A stretch of 63,999 bases of DNA, counting the filler, from Stramenopiles sp. TOSAG23-2 (taxonomy: Eukaryota), in the NCBI GenBank assembly GCA_900128395.1. It is 3 parts of 3 records of this genome, joined end to end, with 100 filler letters (N's around TTAATTAATTAA, not from the genome) between each part and the next. Parts side by side here need not be neighbours in the genome. Positions count along the whole stretch, not along the records: positions 1 to 31,144 come from LT649375.1; 2 more parts are not named here. One strand, 5' to 3'. Below the pieces are notes generated by a model. The model searched no databases. It was given only the letters and a program-made list of their open reading frames with translations, and had not been told where the DNA came from. Each line of letters opens with the position of its first letter. Position 1 is the stretch's first letter. The position numbers were made by a program, and so were the translations under genes. Below, in pieces: positions 2 through 51,969 of this stretch.

Positions 2-3000
2 TTGGCAGGTAACGAGGAAGTTGTATTAGATTGCTCATTTGCCCCAAAACGTGTTGGACTTTTTCATTCCAAAATATCAATGTACATTCGTCCATTAGGA
101 GGTACAAAATCACAACATATGACGGAAAGGCGATTGTTAAATATTATTGCGGAGGGTCGTACCGGTGCAGTAAAGTTTGAGCCTGAAAATATGGATATGG
201 GAACTACATTGGTGGGGAGCGAAGTTGATAAAACGTTGACTTTGTCAAATACATCGGATGCTGATTTGCATTTCCGATTGGATAGCATCTTAGCAGACGA
301 TTTGGATTTATTGGATGCAGATCATGATGGTAATATAAGTGCTGCTGAATTGCGTGCATATTCTAAGCAAAGAAACATATCAGCGGATAAAGATGCTGGG
401 GATGGAGATGGTAGAACAACAGTGGAGGAAGTTAAAAAACAACAACAAGTTGTCATGCTTGGATTTGAGCCGACGTTAGGACTACTCCCGGCCCGTTCGA
501 AATTGAAAGTAAAAGTGACATACCGGCCAAGTTATCCAACGACAAATCGTTTTCAAATTTTTTGCGATGTGGTAATAGCAGGTCAAGATGATACAGGTGT
601 TTGGGATCAATCGCAACGCGTAGCTGCATTGAGCCCACGTTCAAAAGCTAAACTAGAGGAGGAAGTTGAAGGAGAGCCTTTAATGTGCAGTTTAATTGGA
701 CGTGCTACGTATCCCACGTTACGTGTAGTTGATGCAAGGTCTGCGTTAATATCGCCAGCAATGTTATGGAAACAATTTAGTTTAAGTGAAATGAATTATG
801 AATTTTCAACACCGTTAACGACGGCGCAATTACGTTTAAACCAACAAACTGGTGTTGGATCAGGTGCATTGGATTATTTATATCAAAATTTCTTATGGGA
901 ATTTACACCAAGACCAGCTGGGTCTCCATCCGAAGTAGTATTATTGCGCTTTAAAAATGTTAGTAAATTGCCATTAGAATTTAGTTTTAAAATGCCAAAT
1001 GAATTGGATGTTGAAATTGAACATTGGGCAGATGCAGGGGAGCCAACGGAAGATGAACTTCGACAAAATAGTATAATCGATGCTAGATTATTTGAAATTG
1101 AGCCAAAACAAGCACAGCTACCTGAAGGGGAGACGGTTACCGTACGAATTAGTTATAATTACAATTCAATCGAATATGGTGGAGATCATTGCGTTCCAGT
1201 TTTATTTAAAATGTCAAAAGGTAAGCAAATCCGACTCTGGTTGCGTGGACGTACCTTACCCCCAGATCAAGCTCGTTTGTTTGTTCCAGTAGCAAATGCC
1301 GTCAAATTGAACCAAGTGCCAATAGGGCATGCATCACCACCAATACAAAATATTGTAATTCAAAATCCAAGTAGTTGCACCATCGAGTACAATGTCAATT
1401 TAAATGCGTTAAAAGATATTCAAGCGGACAATTTTAACTTTCCAATATTTAAACAATTCGATGTGGAAAGTGGTAGCGATGCTGTGGTGATTGATGAGGA
1501 AAATGGAAATTTATCTTTGAATGGATACGTTGAGTCAGGCAGCACCGCCATAGTCCCATTTGTTTTTCAACCATTGGAAGAGAAGAAATACGAATTGAAA
1601 GTTCCTATTACATATCGTGGTGCAAATGGCGAACCGTGTGCAATTGGCGTTGCAGTAGGAACAGGGGTTAGCGTTCCATCAACATCAAATGAAGCTGTAT
1701 TAGATGTTACTATTGTTGGTCGTGGATTTCACCCAGCTCCAATTGAAGAGGCAGTGAATGAAGATGAAGCAAGGGGGTTAACAAACGTGGATAAAGAAGT
1801 AGCATTGGATTTGGATTCAAAGGAACATTTAGAACGTATTAAAGTTGCTGCTTCTCGTGCACATGATCGTGAACAGCAAGCAATGGAAGCTAGTAAAGTT
1901 GCAGAGAAAAAACGTGGCAATGCTCTTGTGGAGATGGAAAATCCAATATACGGACCACCCCAGCAGCAAGAATTGCTGTGGGAGGGAATGATAGCAAAGT
2001 TAAGTGTCGATCGTCTCTCCTTCGGTATTGTTCCAGCTGGTTGTGTGACATATGCCGTTACTACTATTCGCAATACTGCACCGGTAAATTTAAATATGTT
2101 TTTAGAATTTGCGTGGGATACATTAGAAACTTTGAGCAACGTCATCAACGTATATCCACGTAATGGTCGTATCCCGCCAGGTGAAAATGTTGTTTGCAAA
2201 TTTACATTGCAATCAACGACGGAGGAAAAACCGAAGATAATCGATCAAAATATACGTTGCTTTTTGAACGGTATAGTGGAAAGTAATAATAAACGACGTG
2301 GTAAAGGTGGTCGTGGAGTTGGATCTAGAAGAAGTACTACTAGTCGATCTAGGGCAAGATCAGTCAGATCGAGCACAAATAATAGCCCAACCGGTAGCAT
2401 CAGTGGCATGTCTCGTTCCTCCGTTGTTAATCGTACTACAATGGCAAGTAGAGGTGGAATCGGGGAATCATTAGCAAGTATGGGATCCGTACAAGGTGGA
2501 TCAAGAGGTGGTTTTCGACCAGGTACAGGATCTACTGGCAATGGACGTAGTGCCTCTCGTATCTCTCGTATGACAGGAGCAAGTGGACGTGGTGGCATGG
2601 TAGATGATAATGAACAAGGAGCAAGCTCAATATTATTTTTAAATTTAACTGGTGAAATAGCCAATAGAAAAACGTTTCGTGACATGAATCGACAAACTGG
2701 TAGCATGGATAAATTTTTCACACCACGTTTACTTTCATCCACTTCTTCGGTACAAACAGATGGTGCGGTGTTAAACACGAAGATAAATGATGATGGAAAT
2801 GTGAAAGCATTAGCAAAAGATATCGTATCCGCTTTGATGGATGATTTAATTGCCGATCCTTCGATTGAGCATTTAATGAAAAGTATACCTGCACCTCCAC
2901 CGCCATATTTTGTACAGCTAAGCGGTAGTGAAACTCCACGTTTGACTGGTGCTCCAATTATTAAAGAAGTTGTTGGTGAAGGTGGAGATGTTGAATTAGT

Positions 3001-3208
3001 CGATGAAATAGAAAATGCTCGAAAACAAACATTGCAAGACAATGAAACACAATCATTGATATCGAAAATTATGGAAAATACAATATTTAATTTGGTACAA
3101 GATGTTGCAGTGGGAGATTTAGATTTAGCAAATATTGAAAAACGTTTTGTACGTGTGGAGAAAGATGATGATGGTGATGAGGAGGCAGAAGAGGCGGAAT
3201 TGATGTGA
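2..3208 (+). CDS. CFAP65: Cilia- and flagella-associated protein 65-like (ASH/MSP Ig-like repeats), 5' partial
   Basis: 1068-aa open frame running from the window edge. Repeated beta-sandwich segments (L.N.S...L.F, F.I.P..G.I.PG) and the EIEHWAD.GEPT..EL segment recall CFAP65/CCDC108. Confidence 0.75.
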   Translation: MAGNEEVVLDCSFAPKRVGLFHSKISMYIRPLGGTKSQHMTERRLLNIIAEGRTGAVKFEPENMDMGTTLVGSEVDKTLTLSNTSDADLHFRLDSILADDLDLLDADHDGNISAAELRAYSKQRNISADKDAGDGDGRTTVEEVKKQQQVVMLGFEPTLGLLPARSKLKVKVTYRPSYPTTNRFQIFCDVVIAGQDDTGVWDQSQRVAALSPRSKAKLEEEVEGEPLMCSLIGRATYPTLRVVDARSALISPAMLWKQFSLSEMNYEFSTPLTTAQLRLNQQTGVGSGALDYLYQNFLWEFTPRPAGSPSEVVLLRFKNVSKLPLEFSFKMPNELDVEIEHWADAGEPTEDELRQNSIIDARLFEIEPKQAQLPEGETVTVRISYNYNSIEYGGDHCVPVLFKMSKGKQIRLWLRGRTLPPDQARLFVPVANAVKLNQVPIGHASPPIQNIVIQNPSSCTIEYNVNLNALKDIQADNFNFPIFKQFDVESGSDAVVIDEENGNLSLNGYVESGSTAIVPFVFQPLEEKKYELKVPITYRGANGEPCAIGVAVGTGVSVPSTSNEAVLDVTIVGRGFHPAPIEEAVNEDEARGLTNVDKEVALDLDSKEHLERIKVAASRAHDREQQAMEASKVAEKKRGNALVEMENPIYGPPQQQELLWEGMIAKLSVDRLSFGIVPAGCVTYAVTTIRNTAPVNLNMFLEFAWDTLETLSNVINVYPRNGRIPPGENVVCKFTLQSTTEEKPKIIDQNIRCFLNGIVESNNKRRGKGGRGVGSRRSTTSRSRARSVRSSTNNSPTGSISGMSRSSVVNRTTMASRGGIGESLASMGSVQGGSRGGFRPGTGSTGNGRSASRISRMTGASGRGGMVDDNEQGASSILFLNLTGEIANRKTFRDMNRQTGSMDKFFTPRLLSSTSSVQTDGAVLNTKINDDGNVKALAKDIVSALMDDLIADPSIEHLMKSIPAPPPPYFVQLSGSETPRLTGAPIIKEVVGEGGDVELVDEIENARKQTLQDNETQSLISKIMENTIFNLVQDVAVGDLDLANIEKRFVRVEKDDDGDEEAEEAELM

Positions 3209-3266
3209 TACTCTCTAGTCAGATTATGTTTTACTTTGTATAATATGTAATTTTTTGAAGCTTTAT

Positions 3267-4145
3267 TTACTTATATGACACTTCTTCATCAATAAGGCGG
3301 TGAATCCAGGATCCACCTTTTGCCCCACTAACAACTGCATTGTCAGCTTTGGCTGTCATCAATAACATGTTACTTTGTGTAATGTTCATATTTAACAATT
3401 TCTTTTTTTTAACACAATCAATGATTGATTCAACAATTAGATAAAAATTTTTTAAATTTTGCTCCTTGGTACTAATGTACTTGAATTGCTTATAAGCAAT
3501 TTTACTCTCCTTATCTAAATCATTCAATATATTTACCAATTCTTCCTTTTTTTTTAATCTTTTATTGACAATATTATTTGCAATTTTTTTCCCTTCAGCA
3601 TGTGCTACTGTTATTAAAGCACCTGCTTCCCAAGCTGCATATATGGCACCATTAGCATTCCTAATTTTACTAGCTAATAAATGCAACTTTTCCTTAATTG
3701 ACATTGATGCCAATTTTTCATTTGTCAATGTTTCTACTTCTTTTTTTTTCAATGGAGATGTTGCTTTTGCATTGTTAAATGCATTTATAAACTCTTCAAC
3801 TAAAGCTTCACGCTTCTCTTTTTTTGATATGCATACATTTACATTCTTTTTTTTTTTCACAATAGATTCTTTTCCAACTACACTTTTCTTCACTGCCATG
3901 GTAATGTTATTTTTTGTTAAAAATTCTTCATATATATCACAGTCTTGTTGCAATTTCTCCATTTCTTCACCTTGAAGCAAATAGTCTTGTCTCAACTTAT
4001 CATATGCTTCTCTGAGCTCATCATACTGCAAATCCAGAGCATTATAGTCATTTTGCAGAGCATTATAGTCGTCGTCTTGTTGCTGGCAATCTGATGTTTT
4101 ACAAACATAATTATTAGTATCTGTGTTTTCCATCTTTGTGCTCAT
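3267..4145 (-). CDS. Orphan protein, 292 aa, N-terminal coiled coil
   Basis: Uninterrupted 879-bp ORF in very AT-rich DNA with heptad repeats (YNALQNDYNALDLQYDEL). No recognised family. Confidence 0.65.
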   Translation of the reverse strand: MSTKMENTDTNNYVCKTSDCQQQDDDYNALQNDYNALDLQYDELREAYDKLRQDYLLQGEEMEKLQQDCDIYEEFLTKNNITMAVKKSVVGKESIVKKKKNVNVCISKKEKREALVEEFINAFNNAKATSPLKKKEVETLTNEKLASMSIKEKLHLLASKIRNANGAIYAAWEAGALITVAHAEGKKIANNIVNKRLKKKEELVNILNDLDKESKIAYKQFKYISTKEQNLKNFYLIVESIIDCVKKKKLLNMNITQSNMLLMTAKADNAVVSGAKGGSWIHRLIDEEVSYK

Positions 4146-4946
4146 TTCAAGTGCTCTTTTCAGTTTTATATACTTGTATTCTCTTTGTTTGATTATTGTT
4201 CTCTTTTTGTTTGTTTGTTTGTATGTATCTAAAATATTTTGTATATGAAAATAGTGTATGTCATAATATATGATATATACTTCGGTAATAATTTCAATAA
4301 TAAATAATAATTATTATTATCTATATTACTACAACACCACTATAACTACTATACTAAGCGGTGACGACGACGACGAGACGACCCAATTCAACAGAGATAA
4401 TAAAATTTAAATTCAGTATTGTATCGAGTTTTGTGTCAAATTATCCCAATATGCACATCAAATAGATCGTGATATAATTTAAGTGTATTATAAATTATAC
4501 TTATAATTAGTATCTATGTACAATTAGTATTTAATCCTTATTAAATATTTTTATGTAATATTATATACGTAAATTTGACGCTTTTTTAAGGAAAACCGGA
4601 CATTCGGGTTTTATGACCGTTGGTCCAAAAAGTTCGATCATGCTTTGCAAAGTGAAGCAGAGAGGAGGGAGACCGCTTTCACATACAATATAATAATAAT
4701 ACATACCGGCAGAAGAATAATATTATAATAATAATAATAAATAATACATAATACAACATAGAACATAGATTTTAACCTGGTTAAAAAATATATCCACGTA
4801 GTTATAGGTCTAAACATAAAAACACAATAAACAACAAAACAAAAGGAGAACAATAATCAAACAAAGAGAATACAAGTATATAAAACTGAAAAGAGCCTTG
4901 CACAAAGATGAAAAAAAACACAGATACTAAAAATTATGTTTGTGGA
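4097..4946. repeat. Inverted repeat pair (about 4097-4220 / about 4829-4946) covering the leaders and first codons of two divergent ORFs
   Basis: 4153-4203 is the exact reverse complement of 4846-4896 (51 bp). Similarity extends into the codons KMENTDTNNYVCK / KMKKNTDTKNYVCG. Confidence 0.95.
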
Positions 4947-5678
4947 AAAGAAAATAGCACAGATTTTATGCACATGAATTTGAAACCTAAAGCAACGAGA
5001 AGCAACAAAAAGGAGCATGTAAAAAAAAATGTACCAAAAAACATTGGATTTGGATCAGGTACAGCAAGATTTAAAAGGAAACCAAAGCCTAAATTATTGA
5101 AAACACCTCCACCAAAGGAGAAAAGAGGAGCTAATGCAAGATCAATAATCGAAAAAATTGAAAGGAATAAAAAAGCAATTGAGGAAATTAAAAAAAAATT
5201 AAAAACTAAAGCAGATAAAGCTGATGTAGACAAACTAAAAGTTGAATTGAAAGAACTTAAAAATACTTTGCAAAAGCTATTAAATTCGAAATCATCTGGT
5301 GCAACTGGTACAACAGGTTCAACTGGTTCATCTGTTTCATCTGTTTCCTCTGTTTCATCTGTTTCATCTGGTAGTTGGTATGATGGTTTGGACTTGGGAC
5401 CAAAATATTTACGTATGGCTAAAATGGGAATTCCAGAAGCAGCTGTAAGACATGCTATGAAAAAGGATGGTGTTGAAAATGCAAATGGTGGTGGTAGTAG
5501 CAAAGGTGGTGTATTTGCAGCCATCAGAGCAGCAAAACAAAAAAGAAAAGCTGCTGAAGAAAAAGATGGTGGTGCTGGAAAAGCAAAAGCAAAAACTGGT
5601 GTTACAGGCCACCAAGCTGCATTATTTGCAGCAATTGCAAAACGCCGTGAAACAATGAAACCAGAATCACCAATGTAA
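4908..5678 (+). CDS. Orphan basic protein, 256 aa, with coiled coil, CCDC53/WASHC3-like helical motif and two WH2-like motifs
   Basis: Intact ORF. KYLRMAKMGIPEAAVRHAMKKDGV resembles the CCDC53-type KY.KML..G.P..AV..KM..EG motif; GGVFAAIRA and ALFAAIAKR resemble WH2 helices. Confidence 0.65.
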   Translation: MKKNTDTKNYVCGKENSTDFMHMNLKPKATRSNKKEHVKKNVPKNIGFGSGTARFKRKPKPKLLKTPPPKEKRGANARSIIEKIERNKKAIEEIKKKLKTKADKADVDKLKVELKELKNTLQKLLNSKSSGATGTTGSTGSSVSSVSSVSSVSSGSWYDGLDLGPKYLRMAKMGIPEAAVRHAMKKDGVENANGGGSSKGGVFAAIRAAKQKRKAAEEKDGGAGKAKAKTGVTGHQAALFAAIAKRRETMKPESPM

Positions 5679-5970
5679 CTTGGAAACAAAATAAAATTAA
5701 AAACATGATGTGAAAAATGCGACAGCAACAAAATGAAATTAAAAATATCACGCGTGAAAAATGCGACAGCAACAGATGTCCTCTAATGCCATTGAGCAAT
5801 GTGAACAATGAAAAAAATGTAAACAATGAAAAAAAGTACTTCGTAAAAACAACAAAAGTGCATCTTGACCTTTTTGAAAAGATGTGTGTGTAAAAAAATA
5901 ACAAAACAAATTATCTTTCCATATTTTCTTTTAACCTTTTCACCTATTTAAACACAAAACAATATCTCAA

Positions 5971-6203
5971 ATCAATTCCGCCTCTTCTTCATCACCATCA
6001 TTCATCTTTCTCCACACATACAAAACGTTTTTCAATATTTTGCTAAATATAAATCACCAACCTGCAACATCTTCAACTAAATTAAATATTGTATTTTCCA
6101 TAATTTTCAATATCGACGATTGCGTTTTCATTGTCTTGCAATGTTTGTTTACGAGCATTTTCTATTTCATCGACTAATTCAACATCTCCACCTTCACCAA
6201 CAA
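5971..6203 (-). pseudogene. Inverted, decayed copy of the CFAP65 3' end (2970-3204)
   Basis: The reverse complement aligns with 2970-3204, showing substitutions, four +1 insertions and a 9-nt deletion. Confidence 0.93.
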
Positions 6204-6277
6204 AAAAGAATTATAAAAAGTCAAAAAAATATATACAATATTTTTCTGTGCGAACTGTATCATGCATATAACTTTTC

Positions 6278-8061
6278 TTAAAAATCACCAAAGGATGAGA
6301 ATGGATCATCATCTCCACCACCGCCGCCGCCGCCGTTGCCATCATCGTCAGTTACTGGAAATGAATCAAAAGCATTATCAAATGCGTCTTCGCCATTATT
6401 ATTATTATCGTCAGTATTTCCAAATGTACCATCTGTATTTCCATCACCGGATGGGAAAGCATTGTCATCAAAAGCAATTTCGTCCGGCACATTAAAACCA
6501 TCGTTACTAGTACTACTTGTATTATTTGGCTCTTCTTTATTTTCAGCTGTATCAAATGCATCAAACGCACTTGTGCCATTATTGGTGGTATCCATTGATG
6601 CAAACGCATCACCACCAAATGCATCCCCATCTTTATTATTATTATCTGTAACATTCGTTGTAGTATTAAACGCATTATCATTAGTACTATCCATTGATGC
6701 AAACGCATCATTTCCGAATGCGTCCGGCACATTAAAAGCATCGTTACTAGTACTACTTGTATTATTTGGCTCTTCTTTACTTTCAGCTGTATCAAATGCA
6801 TCGAAACCGCTTGTTCCATTATTGGTGGTATCCATTGATGCAAACGCATCATTCCCGAATGCATCTCCATCTTTATCATTATCATCTGTAACATTCGTAG
6901 TAGTATTAAACGCATTAGTATTAGTACTATCCATTGATGCAAACGCATCATTCCCGAATGCATCTCCATCTTTATTATTATTATCTGTAACATTCGTAAT
7001 ATTAAACGCATTATCATTAGTACTTTCCATTGATGCAAACGCATCATTCCCGAATGTATCTCCTGCTTTATTCGCAATAACGTGTGTCGCATTGAACGTA
7101 TCATTATCGTTATTATTATTATTATTATTATCTTCCTCCTCCTCGCTTGATGAATTAATATAACTGGTTTGTCCACCGGATTTTTCTTCAACTACACCAC
7201 CACCAATATCACCAAATCCATCCGCCCCAGTAGTAGTCGTACCAAAACCACCATCACCAAACGAATGATCTTCTTCTGCTAAATTTACAAATTGTGTTTG
7301 ATCAAACCCTTTACCTGCTTGTTGTTCAATACTATTACTACTACTACTACTACCACTACCATTACTATTGTTTATCATATCAAACGTATTAAATGATTGT
7401 TCAACGTTAGTAACTTGTTCTGATAGTAAACTTTTCTCAGCAATTCTCTGTTCATGAATCCCCGTAGAACGATGAAGCTGCGATTTACTGCTTTGATATT
7501 TACTTTTTGCTTGCTCTCGCTGTAACTTTGCTTCTGCTAATTTATTTTTTAAACTTTCAATTTCGTTTTCCATTGACTCGATGCCTTGGTCATGCTTCGC
7601 ACGAAGATGGTCTAAATCTTTTGCACTGTCATTAAAATCTCTAATCTCCGCCTTCACTTGTTTGATTTCTTCGCTTATTACTTTCTTAAGATGTGTCAAT
7701 TCTTGTCTTCTTCCACGTGACACAAGTTCCTCTCCTCGTTTTTTCCATAGAACGTCTCTCTTTTTATTTAATTTCTCTTTCAACTTTTTCACTTCATTGC
7801 GTATATTATTTTCCTCTTTCATTGCATTTCGTGTAGATTCTTCAACAGTGTCTAATGTTTGTTCAACATCATTTAATAATGACATTAAGCTTTCTCTTTC
7901 GTCCTTCAAATTTCCTATAGCGACTTTCATTGAATTTAAAAATGCTTCGTTCCCTTTAACAGATCTTTGAATAATATTCTTGTTATTGTTGATAGTTTTT
8001 TGCATGGATTGGCTTTCTTCAACTATAATGGTATTAAATTGATTGTTACTACTATCATAGC

Positions 8062-8098
<37 letters not shown>

Positions 8099-9385
8099 TG
8101 GAGAGTTGCGACTACTACTAGTAGTAGTCATATTCTTCACACCATTATCATTGGAAAACGATTTGAAATTATTATTACTTGTCATCTTCATACTATCATT
8201 ATTACCATTCATTGGTGCCATCGTTGTTGTTGGAGCTTGTAACATATTTTCAACTACAAGAGGAGGCGAGGGAGCTTGGTTTGCTACTTCTTCTTCTTGT
8301 ATTTGTTGTATTTGTGGTGCTGCCATGTTTTGTTTTGCAACAACAGGAGCAGCAGGTATCGAGGAATTGATGTTGTTTTTAGGTGAGATCTTTGAGTTTT
8401 CCTCAATGATACTCATATCAATGCCGAGTGCACCTGCGACTGCATCTGCAATTTTTTTTGCTTTTGTGTTTGGGCTAGGCGGCGGCGGCGCTTGATTATT
8501 ATTGCCCATTTGAAGTTCACCTCCCGTTGCAATAGTTAATTTGTCACCAAATGTATCGTCAACGACATCACCATTTGTTGTTGTATTAATATTATTGTTG
8601 TTTCCCTCTACCATTTTTGCACTATCGAAAAGAACTCGTGGAAGTGATGGTGGCAATGTCTTTCCATACCGGCTTATTTTCACGATTAAATGGAATGCAA
8701 TACAAAATTCACTTTTTGATAGACAACCATTTTTTGTTGTATCCGACATATCCCAAATTTTTCCTAAAACTGGATGTGGTAAATTCGATTTCATCATGAA
8801 AGTTCTGGCCTCTACTCCTGTTAAATGACCTTTACGGCCTACATCTAGTTGATTAAAGTGTGTCAGATATTTTTCTTTTGCTTCTGGTGTAATTCTCCAA
8901 GCATCGTCTTCATCTTGGTTCACTTGCATGTTTCCCAAAGCTGTAGCAGGTTGTGTCGCAGCAACTTGTTGTTGTTGTGCCGGTGGTGGTGGTAATTGTA
9001 TGCCTTCAAACTGTGGCAGTGGCAAACTTTGAGATTGACTTTGAAGAACGAGTTGTGGTGTTAGTGGTTTAAAACCACGTTGTTTTAGTGTTATTAGTCG
9101 CAAAGCAACACTAAACCTGGCATAGTCTAAAAAACCCTTGCCATCCCAATCAGCAATATCCCATATCTTTTTTAATGTAGGGACATCTACTCTTGAACGT
9201 TTTAAAAATACAACAGCTTCACCGCCAGTAACACGACCGACAGTAGCAATACTTGCCATTTTAAACATGCTATTATAATATTGTTGTTCCGTGATATTTT
9301 GAGGAACATATGCAGCAGCGGCTACTGATGGTGCTCCACCAAATTGTGCCCCACCACCTACAGCATTGCCAGTAGGTTGATACAT
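6278..9385 (-). CDS. Eps15/Ede1-like EH-domain endocytic adaptor
   Basis: Two EH domains (LKKIWDIADWDGKGFL; LGKIWDMSDTTKNGCLSKSEFCIAFHLI), a central coiled coil and an acidic tail with many DAF motifs and a terminal DPF. Confidence 0.85.
6400..7070 (-). repeat. Intragenic tandem repeats (DAFASMD units; 240-bp higher-order period)
   Basis: cgtccggcacattaaaa recurs at 6481 and 6721; ccattgatgcaaacgcatc recurs five times. Confidence 0.9.
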
Positions 9386-24458: not shown

Positions 24459-24616
24459 AATGCACGAGGTTTGATAGTAAAATATGTGTAATTTGTACTT
24501 ATTAGTATAATAAANNNNNNNNNNNNNNNNNNNNNNNNNNNNNNNNNNNNNNNNNNNNNNAATGCACGAGGTTTGATAGTAAAATATGTGTAATTTGTAC
24601 TTATTAGTATAATAAA
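24459..24616. other. Scaffold gap flanked by an identical 56-bp overlap
   Basis: 24459-24514 equals 24561-24616 on either side of an N-run, typical of an unmerged assembly overlap. Confidence 0.9.
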
Positions 24617-51755: not shown

Positions 51756-51937
51756 AAATAAATGATGTGCAAATCGAAAAATTGGATTATGTAATAATAT
51801 TAAAAAATAGTAAAGTTCAAGAATGTAGAATATAGAGTGTGGAGAGAGAGAGAAAATAAATGATGTGCAAATCGAAAAATTGGATTATGTAATAATATTA
51901 AAAAATAGTAAAGTTCAAGAATGTAGAATATAGAGTG

Positions 51938-51969
<32 letters not shown>
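51756..51969 (+). repeat. 98-bp tandem duplication ending in a (GA)n microsatellite
   Basis: 51756-51852 is repeated from 51854. Confidence 0.9.

Follow-up and report, generated by a model that had tools for sequence, protein, structure and literature searches.

Short inverted duplications are known from the breakpoints of chromosomal inversions. In the figures available from part of a Drosophila survey, 17 of 29 inversions carry breakpoint duplications with a median length of 321 bp (range 46 bp to 1.9 kb) and an identity of 88% ± 5.4%; 12 of 18 inversions have a single breakpoint duplicated, non-functional copies accumulate point and indel mutations, and the cause put forward is a pair of staggered breaks, filled in and rejoined (Ranz et al., 2007, PMC1885836). 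Here we describe a locus of comparable layout in Stramenopiles sp. TOSAG23-2, an uncultured marine flagellate with a compact, intron-poor genome. Positions refer to the joined 64-kb stretch of its DNA that was analysed as a whole (hereafter the window), and searches for repeat copies were made within it. Between the 3' end of a CFAP65-like gene and a gene for an EH-domain protein lie two divergent open reading frames, ORF1 and ORF2, framed by two nested pairs of inverted arms: the outer pair consists of the tail of CFAP65 and its decayed copy, the inner pair of a 5' end that the two ORFs have in common. The nested structure is present in wild populations, and we read it, with a modest preference, as the scar of a natural and fairly old local rearrangement that arose via break repair or micro-inversion.

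Nested inverted arms and their presence in wild populations

The arms, the loop that separates them and the two enclosed genes are as follows (nt, nucleotides).

2970-3208, plus strand: outer arm A, the last 79 codons and the stop codon of CFAP65, in frame
5967-6203, minus strand: outer arm A', a pseudo-copy, broken by frameshifts, of the sequence that codes for the CFAP65 C-terminus; oriented like the EH-domain gene
4101-4220, minus strand: inner arm B, the 5' leader (about 75 nt) and first codons of ORF1
4829-4943, plus strand: inner arm B', the 5' leader and first 12 codons of ORF2
4221-4828 (608 nt), no strand: the loop, unique and AT-rich, between the inner arms
3267-4145, minus strand: ORF1, 292 residues (288 from the second Met), all-helical, with its own record (P0001)
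4908-5678, plus strand: ORF2, 256 residues, with a basic N-terminus, a coiled coil, a Ser/Thr/Gly linker and a CCDC53-type C-terminal motif (about residues 165-191)

By BLASTN, the outer arms are 90.5% identical over 243 columns (E 1.7e-88) and the inner arms 86.9% identical over 122 columns (E 6e-33), so that the nested inverted repeats proposed in the initial annotation are confirmed far beyond chance. Aligned position by position, the outer arms show 13 substitutions, four +1 insertions and one 6-nt deletion (23 of 243 columns), and the inner arms 5 substitutions and 3 indels (16 of about 122-123 columns); counted as substitutions only, divergence is 5.6% (13/233) and 4.5% (5/111) respectively, with wide errors. 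The arms had been described as roughly symmetric about position 4525; the inner midpoint lies at about 4523, the outer midpoint at about 4587 and the spacers between outer and inner arms measure 892 nt on the left and 1023 nt on the right, hence the symmetry is rough only. In a filtered self-BLAST of the window the outer arms are the sole inverted pair among 14 repeat pairs of at least 50 nt, and the inner pair is detected only with the low-complexity filter off; BLASTN across the window returned no further copy of the arms or of the ORFs.

Similarity is confined to the arms, which make up about 11% of each half. For the two bodies (left 3209-4100, right 4944-5966) the local DNA alignment score is 21, where shuffled sequence averages 17.3 (sd 1.9) and 12 of 200 shuffles score as high or higher, and protein comparison in three frames yields scores within the shuffled range, in keeping with the earlier remark that the two ORF bodies do not resemble each other; nor do the two halves of the loop show any palindromy. 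Within the arms the exact inverted stretches reach 51 nt and 52 nt, the latter being the longest. A test for gene conversion based on the length of identity runs was not significant (a 52-nt exact run would arise by chance with p about 0.1-0.25, our own rough estimate rather than the output of a tool), while one stretch has a single difference in 74 nt, which, set against the rest in a post-hoc split of 84 versus 159 columns, gives a Fisher p of 0.02.

The outer pair has a direction. In L001, a metagenome contig from a relative (guanine plus cytosine, GC, 41%), CFAP65 is 69% identical over its C-terminal 154 residues, the arm-A stretch included; since the arm-A peptide is conserved there, arm A represents the ancestral CFAP65 terminus, of which A' is the copy. 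A' lies 74 nt past the stop codon of the EH-domain gene, on the same strand as that gene, and carries stops in all frames along with its four +1 insertions and 6-nt deletion. With L001 as the outgroup, A' shows derived substitutions and indels and A derived synonymous changes; both have changed, so the duplication cannot be recent. A chain of overlapping RNA contigs in run X17 connects the EH coding sequence, by way of the spacer, with A', although this link passes via a 74-nt stretch common to CFAP65 mRNA and the contigs are unstranded; such polyadenylated (polyA) RNA fits, without proving, the view that A' is part of the 3' untranslated region (3'UTR) of the EH-domain gene, whose transcript would then probably carry about 240 nt of sense CFAP65 sequence.

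L001 also continues for 1.07 kb past CFAP65 before the contig ends. This part holds, at 2216-2686 of L001 on the minus strand, a very basic ORF of 156 residues, for which Pfam gives no family and which resembles neither any part of the window, ORF1 and ORF2 included, nor the protein record P0128 described below. Because a different gene follows CFAP65 in L001, a rearrangement downstream of CFAP65 separates the two lineages. Separately, 6 of the 13 wild CFAP65 variants listed fall in the first 60 nt of arm A (2980-3028) and the other 7 in 2000-2969; 5 of those 6 alter an amino acid, and a 943-nt wild contig has 3 of its 5 mismatches at 2980-2991, within 12 nt.

The stretch is best represented in a run of very small size (10 million letters), and the chimeras that amplification generates are mostly inverted (more than 85% of 475 in the available part of the report, PMC1855051), so an artefact check was needed. 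Support was taken from the listed contig pieces of independent marine DNA and RNA runs, with a further 160 pieces outside that list; the contigs are unitigs, which end inside the arms. A DNA contig of run X3 covers 5768-6031 with 1 mismatch, crosses 5967 and has the A'-specific 6-nt deletion together with one insertion, and a polyA-RNA contig of X17 matches 6098-6181 with 0 mismatches, over another A'-specific insertion and four substitutions. Contigs of X3 also bridge 2970, 4101 and 4220 (the edges of inner arm B are crossed by pieces 4020-4158 and 4173-4290), which brings the boundaries bridged by independent runs to four: 2970, 4101, 4220 and 5967. Contigs of X2, X11 and X17 begin at 6174, 30 nt inside A', and continue into the EH-domain gene, one letter below the rule used for bridging. 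On the CFAP65 side contigs end at 2988 and 2999, so that on both sides they stop about 30 nt into the shared stretch, as expected from a repeat that has two contexts in those samples. The bins at 4944-5127 have zero depth in every run and speak neither way. Among the pieces listed, four boundaries are bridged by independent contigs and those at 3208, 4829 and 4943 by none. The initial annotation had held that the arms are no fresh amplification chimera because they differ by substitutions and indels; this stands, and independent runs carry the letters specific to A'.

The genes between and beside the arms

ORF1 and ORF2 share a leader of about 75 nt and their first 12 codons, placed at opposite sides of the loop. 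Met5 of ORF1, at which the public gene model begins, aligns with Met1 of ORF2, and 8 of the 10 following residues are identical. The two genes probably share a translation-start context and perhaps their regulation, with B and B' serving as working 5' ends for both; from the divergent gene starts, the loop is presumed to be a shared divergent promoter region. Across 2900-6300, no Rfam family reached its gathering score (the best hit, 24.5 bits against 41.2 with E 0.17, lies outside the loop at 3386-3432), and a tRNA scan of the same interval returned none.

ORF1 is a lineage-restricted host gene. It matches no Pfam family and has no usable match in the ESM Atlas, and its AlphaFold models have a mean predicted local distance difference test (pLDDT) score of 37.0 from the single sequence and 38.8 from a 5-row alignment, values too low for a search by fold. 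Fragments of it occur in other samples at 68-88% identity; one relative, P0130 (232 residues), matches ORF1 residues 101-258 at 70% identity but aligns only weakly in its N-terminal part and starts about 45 residues later. A wild contig over ORF1 has deletions of 9 nt and 3 nt that keep the frame, and 5 of the 6 substitutions listed are nonsynonymous, so that ORF1 seems to be a fast-evolving but maintained gene. Its stop codon, at which an AATAAA occurs, lies 58 nt from that of CFAP65.

Several side observations belong here. P0128 (a metagenome protein of 132 residues, seen on 3 contigs) is 97% identical to ORF1 residues 40-73 (window 3930-4031) and continues into an unrelated body of 98 residues that is absent from the window; its matches in the ESM Atlas score 0.85 or less. 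Possible explanations are a paralogue or allele whose body was exchanged and a chimeric assembly. In run X2, one contig departs from the window at position 3254, 46 nt beyond the stop codon of CFAP65, and others do so at 3902 and 3907; the 30-letter continuation of the first finds no match in the window. Depth in the same run, about 5-25 in the neighbourhood, rises sharply at 3922 (484) and at 5741 (469). P0128 and the departing contigs could mean that other bodies stand between the same flanks in the population, or equally be chimeras or sequence of other organisms.

ORF2 has a recognisable motif rather than a family assignment. An exhaustive phmmer search found 123 proteins at E of 1e-3 or below, nearly all matching residues of about 165-191, and all 9 of the matches scanned carry PF10152 above its cut-off (E 7e-23 to 6e-121), mostly as many tandem copies of the C-terminal motif, up to 11, and in one match together with a formin FH2 domain. 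ORF2 itself resembles CCDC53/WASHC3 (PF10152) in that these residues match the C-terminal motif of the family and are preceded by a coiled coil. Unlike a family member, however, it scores 20.0 bits, below the gathering cut-off of 24.6, over profile positions 118-142 of 147 only. Since the score is below the cut-off and the motif recurs in unrelated long proteins, the formin among them, ORF2 is best described from its sequence as a motif-bearing protein and is not identified as a WASH subunit. In another sample, P0004 (a 70-residue fragment) is 85-89% identical to the ORF2 C-terminus; a word-based homologue search scored none among 8000 candidates, low complexity having probably swamped it. An AATAAA lies 11 nt after the ORF2 stop. 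Two local repeats were seen in and behind this gene: the linker (5292-5372) is a 9-nt periodic repeat that encodes Ser/Thr/Gly, and the 3' region (5685-5774) contains a 21-nt exact direct repeat (5710-5730 and 5754-5774) within a unit of about 46 nt at 87.5% identity.

Neither ORF looks foreign, and both are ordinary host genes. Their codon usage correlates with that of 15 pooled window genes at r 0.83 (ORF1) and 0.84 (ORF2), where host genes reach 0.80-0.97 and three antisense ORFs 0.58-0.71; their GC content matches the surroundings; no relatives of either were found among 2.9 million viral contigs; and Pfam recognised no transposase, integrase or reverse transcriptase in 14 ORFs (4 local and 10 further in the window), the first two having likewise gone unseen in the initial annotation. 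The term orphan that it applied to the two genes does not hold, ORF1 having relatives in other samples and ORF2 a known motif.

The two convergent genes that it placed on either side are both recovered by Pfam match.

2-3208, plus strand: CFAP65-like gene, 3' part, an ORF open at the window start, with Pfam CFAP65 Ig-like domains (best E 1.1e-48)
6278-9385, minus strand: EH-domain (Eps15/Ede1-like) gene, with a Pfam EH domain (E 4.9e-31, 2 stretches), convergent with ORF2

The C-terminal third of the EH protein (window 6466-7100, minus strand) consists of tandem DNA repeats whose units, 240 nt and about 99 nt long and 65-93% identical, encode repeated acidic motifs with D-A-F. With two EH domains and a coiled coil besides, the protein is one that we take to resemble an endocytic scaffold of the Eps15/Ede1 type. 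Elsewhere in the window, two sets of 100% identical tandem copies, at 24459-24616 (56 nt, flanking an N run) and at 51756-51951 (98 nt, head to tail), are probably artefacts of scaffolding or gap closing.

Origin of the arms

How did two host genes come to be framed in this way? In the reading that we favour, two divergent host genes stood between CFAP65 and the EH-domain gene, and two short stretches, each unique until then, were duplicated in reverse orientation. From CFAP65 the final 239 nt of coding sequence would have been copied to a place beyond ORF2, just downstream of the EH stop, where the displaced copy then decayed by frameshifts; some 120 nt comprising a 5' leader and the first 12 codons would have been copied as well, leaving ORF1 and ORF2 to start with the same module. 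The source would most likely be non-homologous repair of staggered breaks, or template switching during replication, in one complex event or in two nested micro-inversions, and the outcome would be inverted duplications adjacent to breakpoints, around a segment otherwise unrelated at its two sides. Break repair as the mechanism, a single event as the timing and the use of B and B' as working 5' ends by both genes are what we infer; the arms, the pattern of decay, the original outer copy, the host ORFs and the occurrence in the wild are observed. That the two pairs have diverged to a similar degree (5.6% and 4.5%) is consistent with a single event, and unrelated bodies and an unrelated loop are what one expects if only breakpoint-adjacent pieces were copied. 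At about 5% divergence the bodies would still align, so the arms are not the remnants of a simple whole-block palindrome, unless a body was replaced later.

Several points weigh against this reading. A single staggered-break inversion yields interleaved rather than nested repeats, so that the model needs two events or one complex event, and it does not by itself explain the rough symmetry of the locus (892 versus 1023 nt). An inversion of either enclosed segment is not seen in any outgroup, L001 being too short. The inner copy is fused in frame, at codon 12, to a different body, which requires luck or selection. The model does not predict other bodies behind the same flanks, at which wild contigs and P0128 hint, and three boundaries (3208, 4829 and 4943) are crossed by none of the contig pieces listed.

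The alternative that survives best, which we regard as unlikely though worth serious thought, is a fold-back: a palindromic duplication running from the CFAP65 tail through the ORF1 5' end, after which a body was replaced or diverged while the arms were kept alike by gene conversion. It explains the nested, roughly symmetric geometry better than break repair does, both arm pairs are similarly diverged, and the clustered wild variants in arm A (6 of 13; 3 of 5 in the 943-nt contig) resemble conversion tracts. Yet with arms only about 5% diverged the bodies cannot be aligned in DNA or protein, the domain motif of ORF2 is missing from ORF1, the loop has no symmetric shoulders, and identity runs are no longer than chance allows (longest 52 nt). 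An old inverted duplication whose bodies were replaced, one of the origins first suggested for this block, is a possible reading but not the most economical one.

A very unlikely account makes the right half (about 4794-6223) a chimeric processed retrocopy, inserted upstream of ORF1. Its complementary DNA (cDNA) would have been begun on an ORF1 transcript with a 3'UTR antisense to the CFAP65 tail, continued on the mRNA of an ORF2 parent and, after a switch back, ended on the ORF1 5' end. Read in the ORF2 sense, A' is followed by 30 nt that are 70% A, a richness in A or T that only 0.45% of 30-nt windows attain, an 11-nt direct repeat occurs at 4783 and 6224, and the ORF1 and CFAP65 stops are 58 nt apart, so that their transcripts may overlap. 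Against this, an 11-mer is reached in 90 of 1969 AT-rich control pairs (p about 0.05, post hoc), the A-rich tract is also weakly alignable as a decayed extension of the arm, and the AATAAA at the ORF stops suggests 3'UTRs too short to reach the arms, though this signal is found in only 5-6 of 20 genes. Two template switches would be required, no reverse transcriptase is present in the 14 ORFs scanned, and only the two ends match the ORF1 locus, not the body.

Could the locus instead be at work today? If it were a recombination switch or a locus of variable cassettes, the promoter loop would be flipped by exchange between the inner arms, or the flanks would permit body swaps. Two unrelated bodies that share a 5' module and a 3' flank in inverted order, exact inverted stretches of 51 nt and 52 nt in the arms, the pairing in P0128 of ORF1 residues 40-73 (97% identical) with an unrelated body, and the X2 contig that departs at 3254, just past CFAP65, are all in its favour, but we hold it to be highly improbable. 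No strand-changing joint occurs among the contigs listed, which, as unitigs ending inside arms, could not show one; Pfam finds no cell-type regulator domains in ORF1 or ORF2; an origin in other organisms or in chimeric assembly is possible for P0128 and the loose ends. A crossover between the outer arms would, moreover, truncate CFAP65, exchanging its conserved last 50 or so residues for frameshifted sequence, and because it would damage the end of that gene it should be selected against. The more specific idea that this is a recombinational cassette site, where flipping of the loop or swapping of bodies would let different cells or strains make different small proteins associated with the cytoskeleton, is likewise speculative and very improbable.

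The initial annotation had also entertained a selfish or virus-derived cassette. A mobile or viral element inserted between CFAP65 and the EH-domain gene, with terminal inverted repeats of about 240 nt, would fit the layout, long inverted repeats enclosing two small genes of unknown function, but is most improbable: its left terminal repeat is CFAP65's own conserved C-terminus, also found in L001, transposase, integrase and reverse transcriptase are all absent by Pfam from the 14 window ORFs, the 2.9 million viral contigs hold no relatives, codon usage and GC are host-like, ORF1 relatives (about 70%) and CFAP65 (69%) have diverged comparably, and the block is single copy within the window. Equally far-fetched is a fold-back chimera from whole-genome amplification or assembly, an artefact already largely refuted: the tiny size of the best-holding run (10 million letters) and the mostly inverted amplification chimeras of the available part of PMC1855051 would suit it, but the arms have diverged (23/243 and about 16/123 columns) and letters specific to A', with the 5967 junction, recur in independent studies of DNA (X3) and polyA RNA (X17).

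If the break-repair reading is true, the locus would be a clean, small-scale example of break-repair duplication in an uncultured marine protist, in which a dead fragment of a flagellar gene was left in the presumed 3'UTR of a neighbour and a second gene gained a ready-made leader and start codon. It would then bear on how compact protist genomes are reshuffled and on the origin of new gene starts. For annotation it calls for caution, since the dead CFAP65 fragment might be taken for an exon or for an artefact of amplification.

Comparison with known systems

Several described systems have features in common with this locus. A terminal-inverted-repeat DNA transposon or foldback element is not supported as a counterpart, arm A belonging to a host gene and flank alignment revealing no direct repeat adjoining 2970 and 6203 as a clear target-site duplication; the locus gives no indication of a mobile element of a new kind. 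The flip-flop mating-type switching of methylotrophic yeasts, in the part of the literature available for it (PMC6692504), also involves two differing cassettes in inverted order, bounded by inverted repeats; a switch at this locus would be a eukaryotic counterpart to such flip-flop systems or to invertible promoters. The likeness is one of layout only: there is here no silencing context, no gene of regulator type and no population evidence of inversion.

Fold-back or palindromic duplications with conversion between the arms are closer in geometry: the arms are nested and lie more or less symmetrically on either side of a unique spacer, and one arm here hints at clustered variants. They differ in that only about 11% of each half is similar in our case and that the gene bodies are unrelated.

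The closest match is with the duplications at inversion breakpoints, as far as the available part of the Drosophila study describes them (PMC1885836). Differences there are: this locus is a matter of 0.6 and 2.8 kb rather than of chromosomal scale, an inversion relative to an outgroup is not seen, two pairs are nested, and one copy has apparently been reused as the 5' end of a second gene. In both, however, a once-unique sequence, often the end of a gene, stands inverted at the two sides of a segment; the arms here, of about 240 and 120 bp, lie within the reported range and their identities of 90.5% and 87% near its mean; and the spare copy decays, as A' has done. Breakpoint-associated inverted duplications are thus already known, and on our best reading this locus adds one more case.

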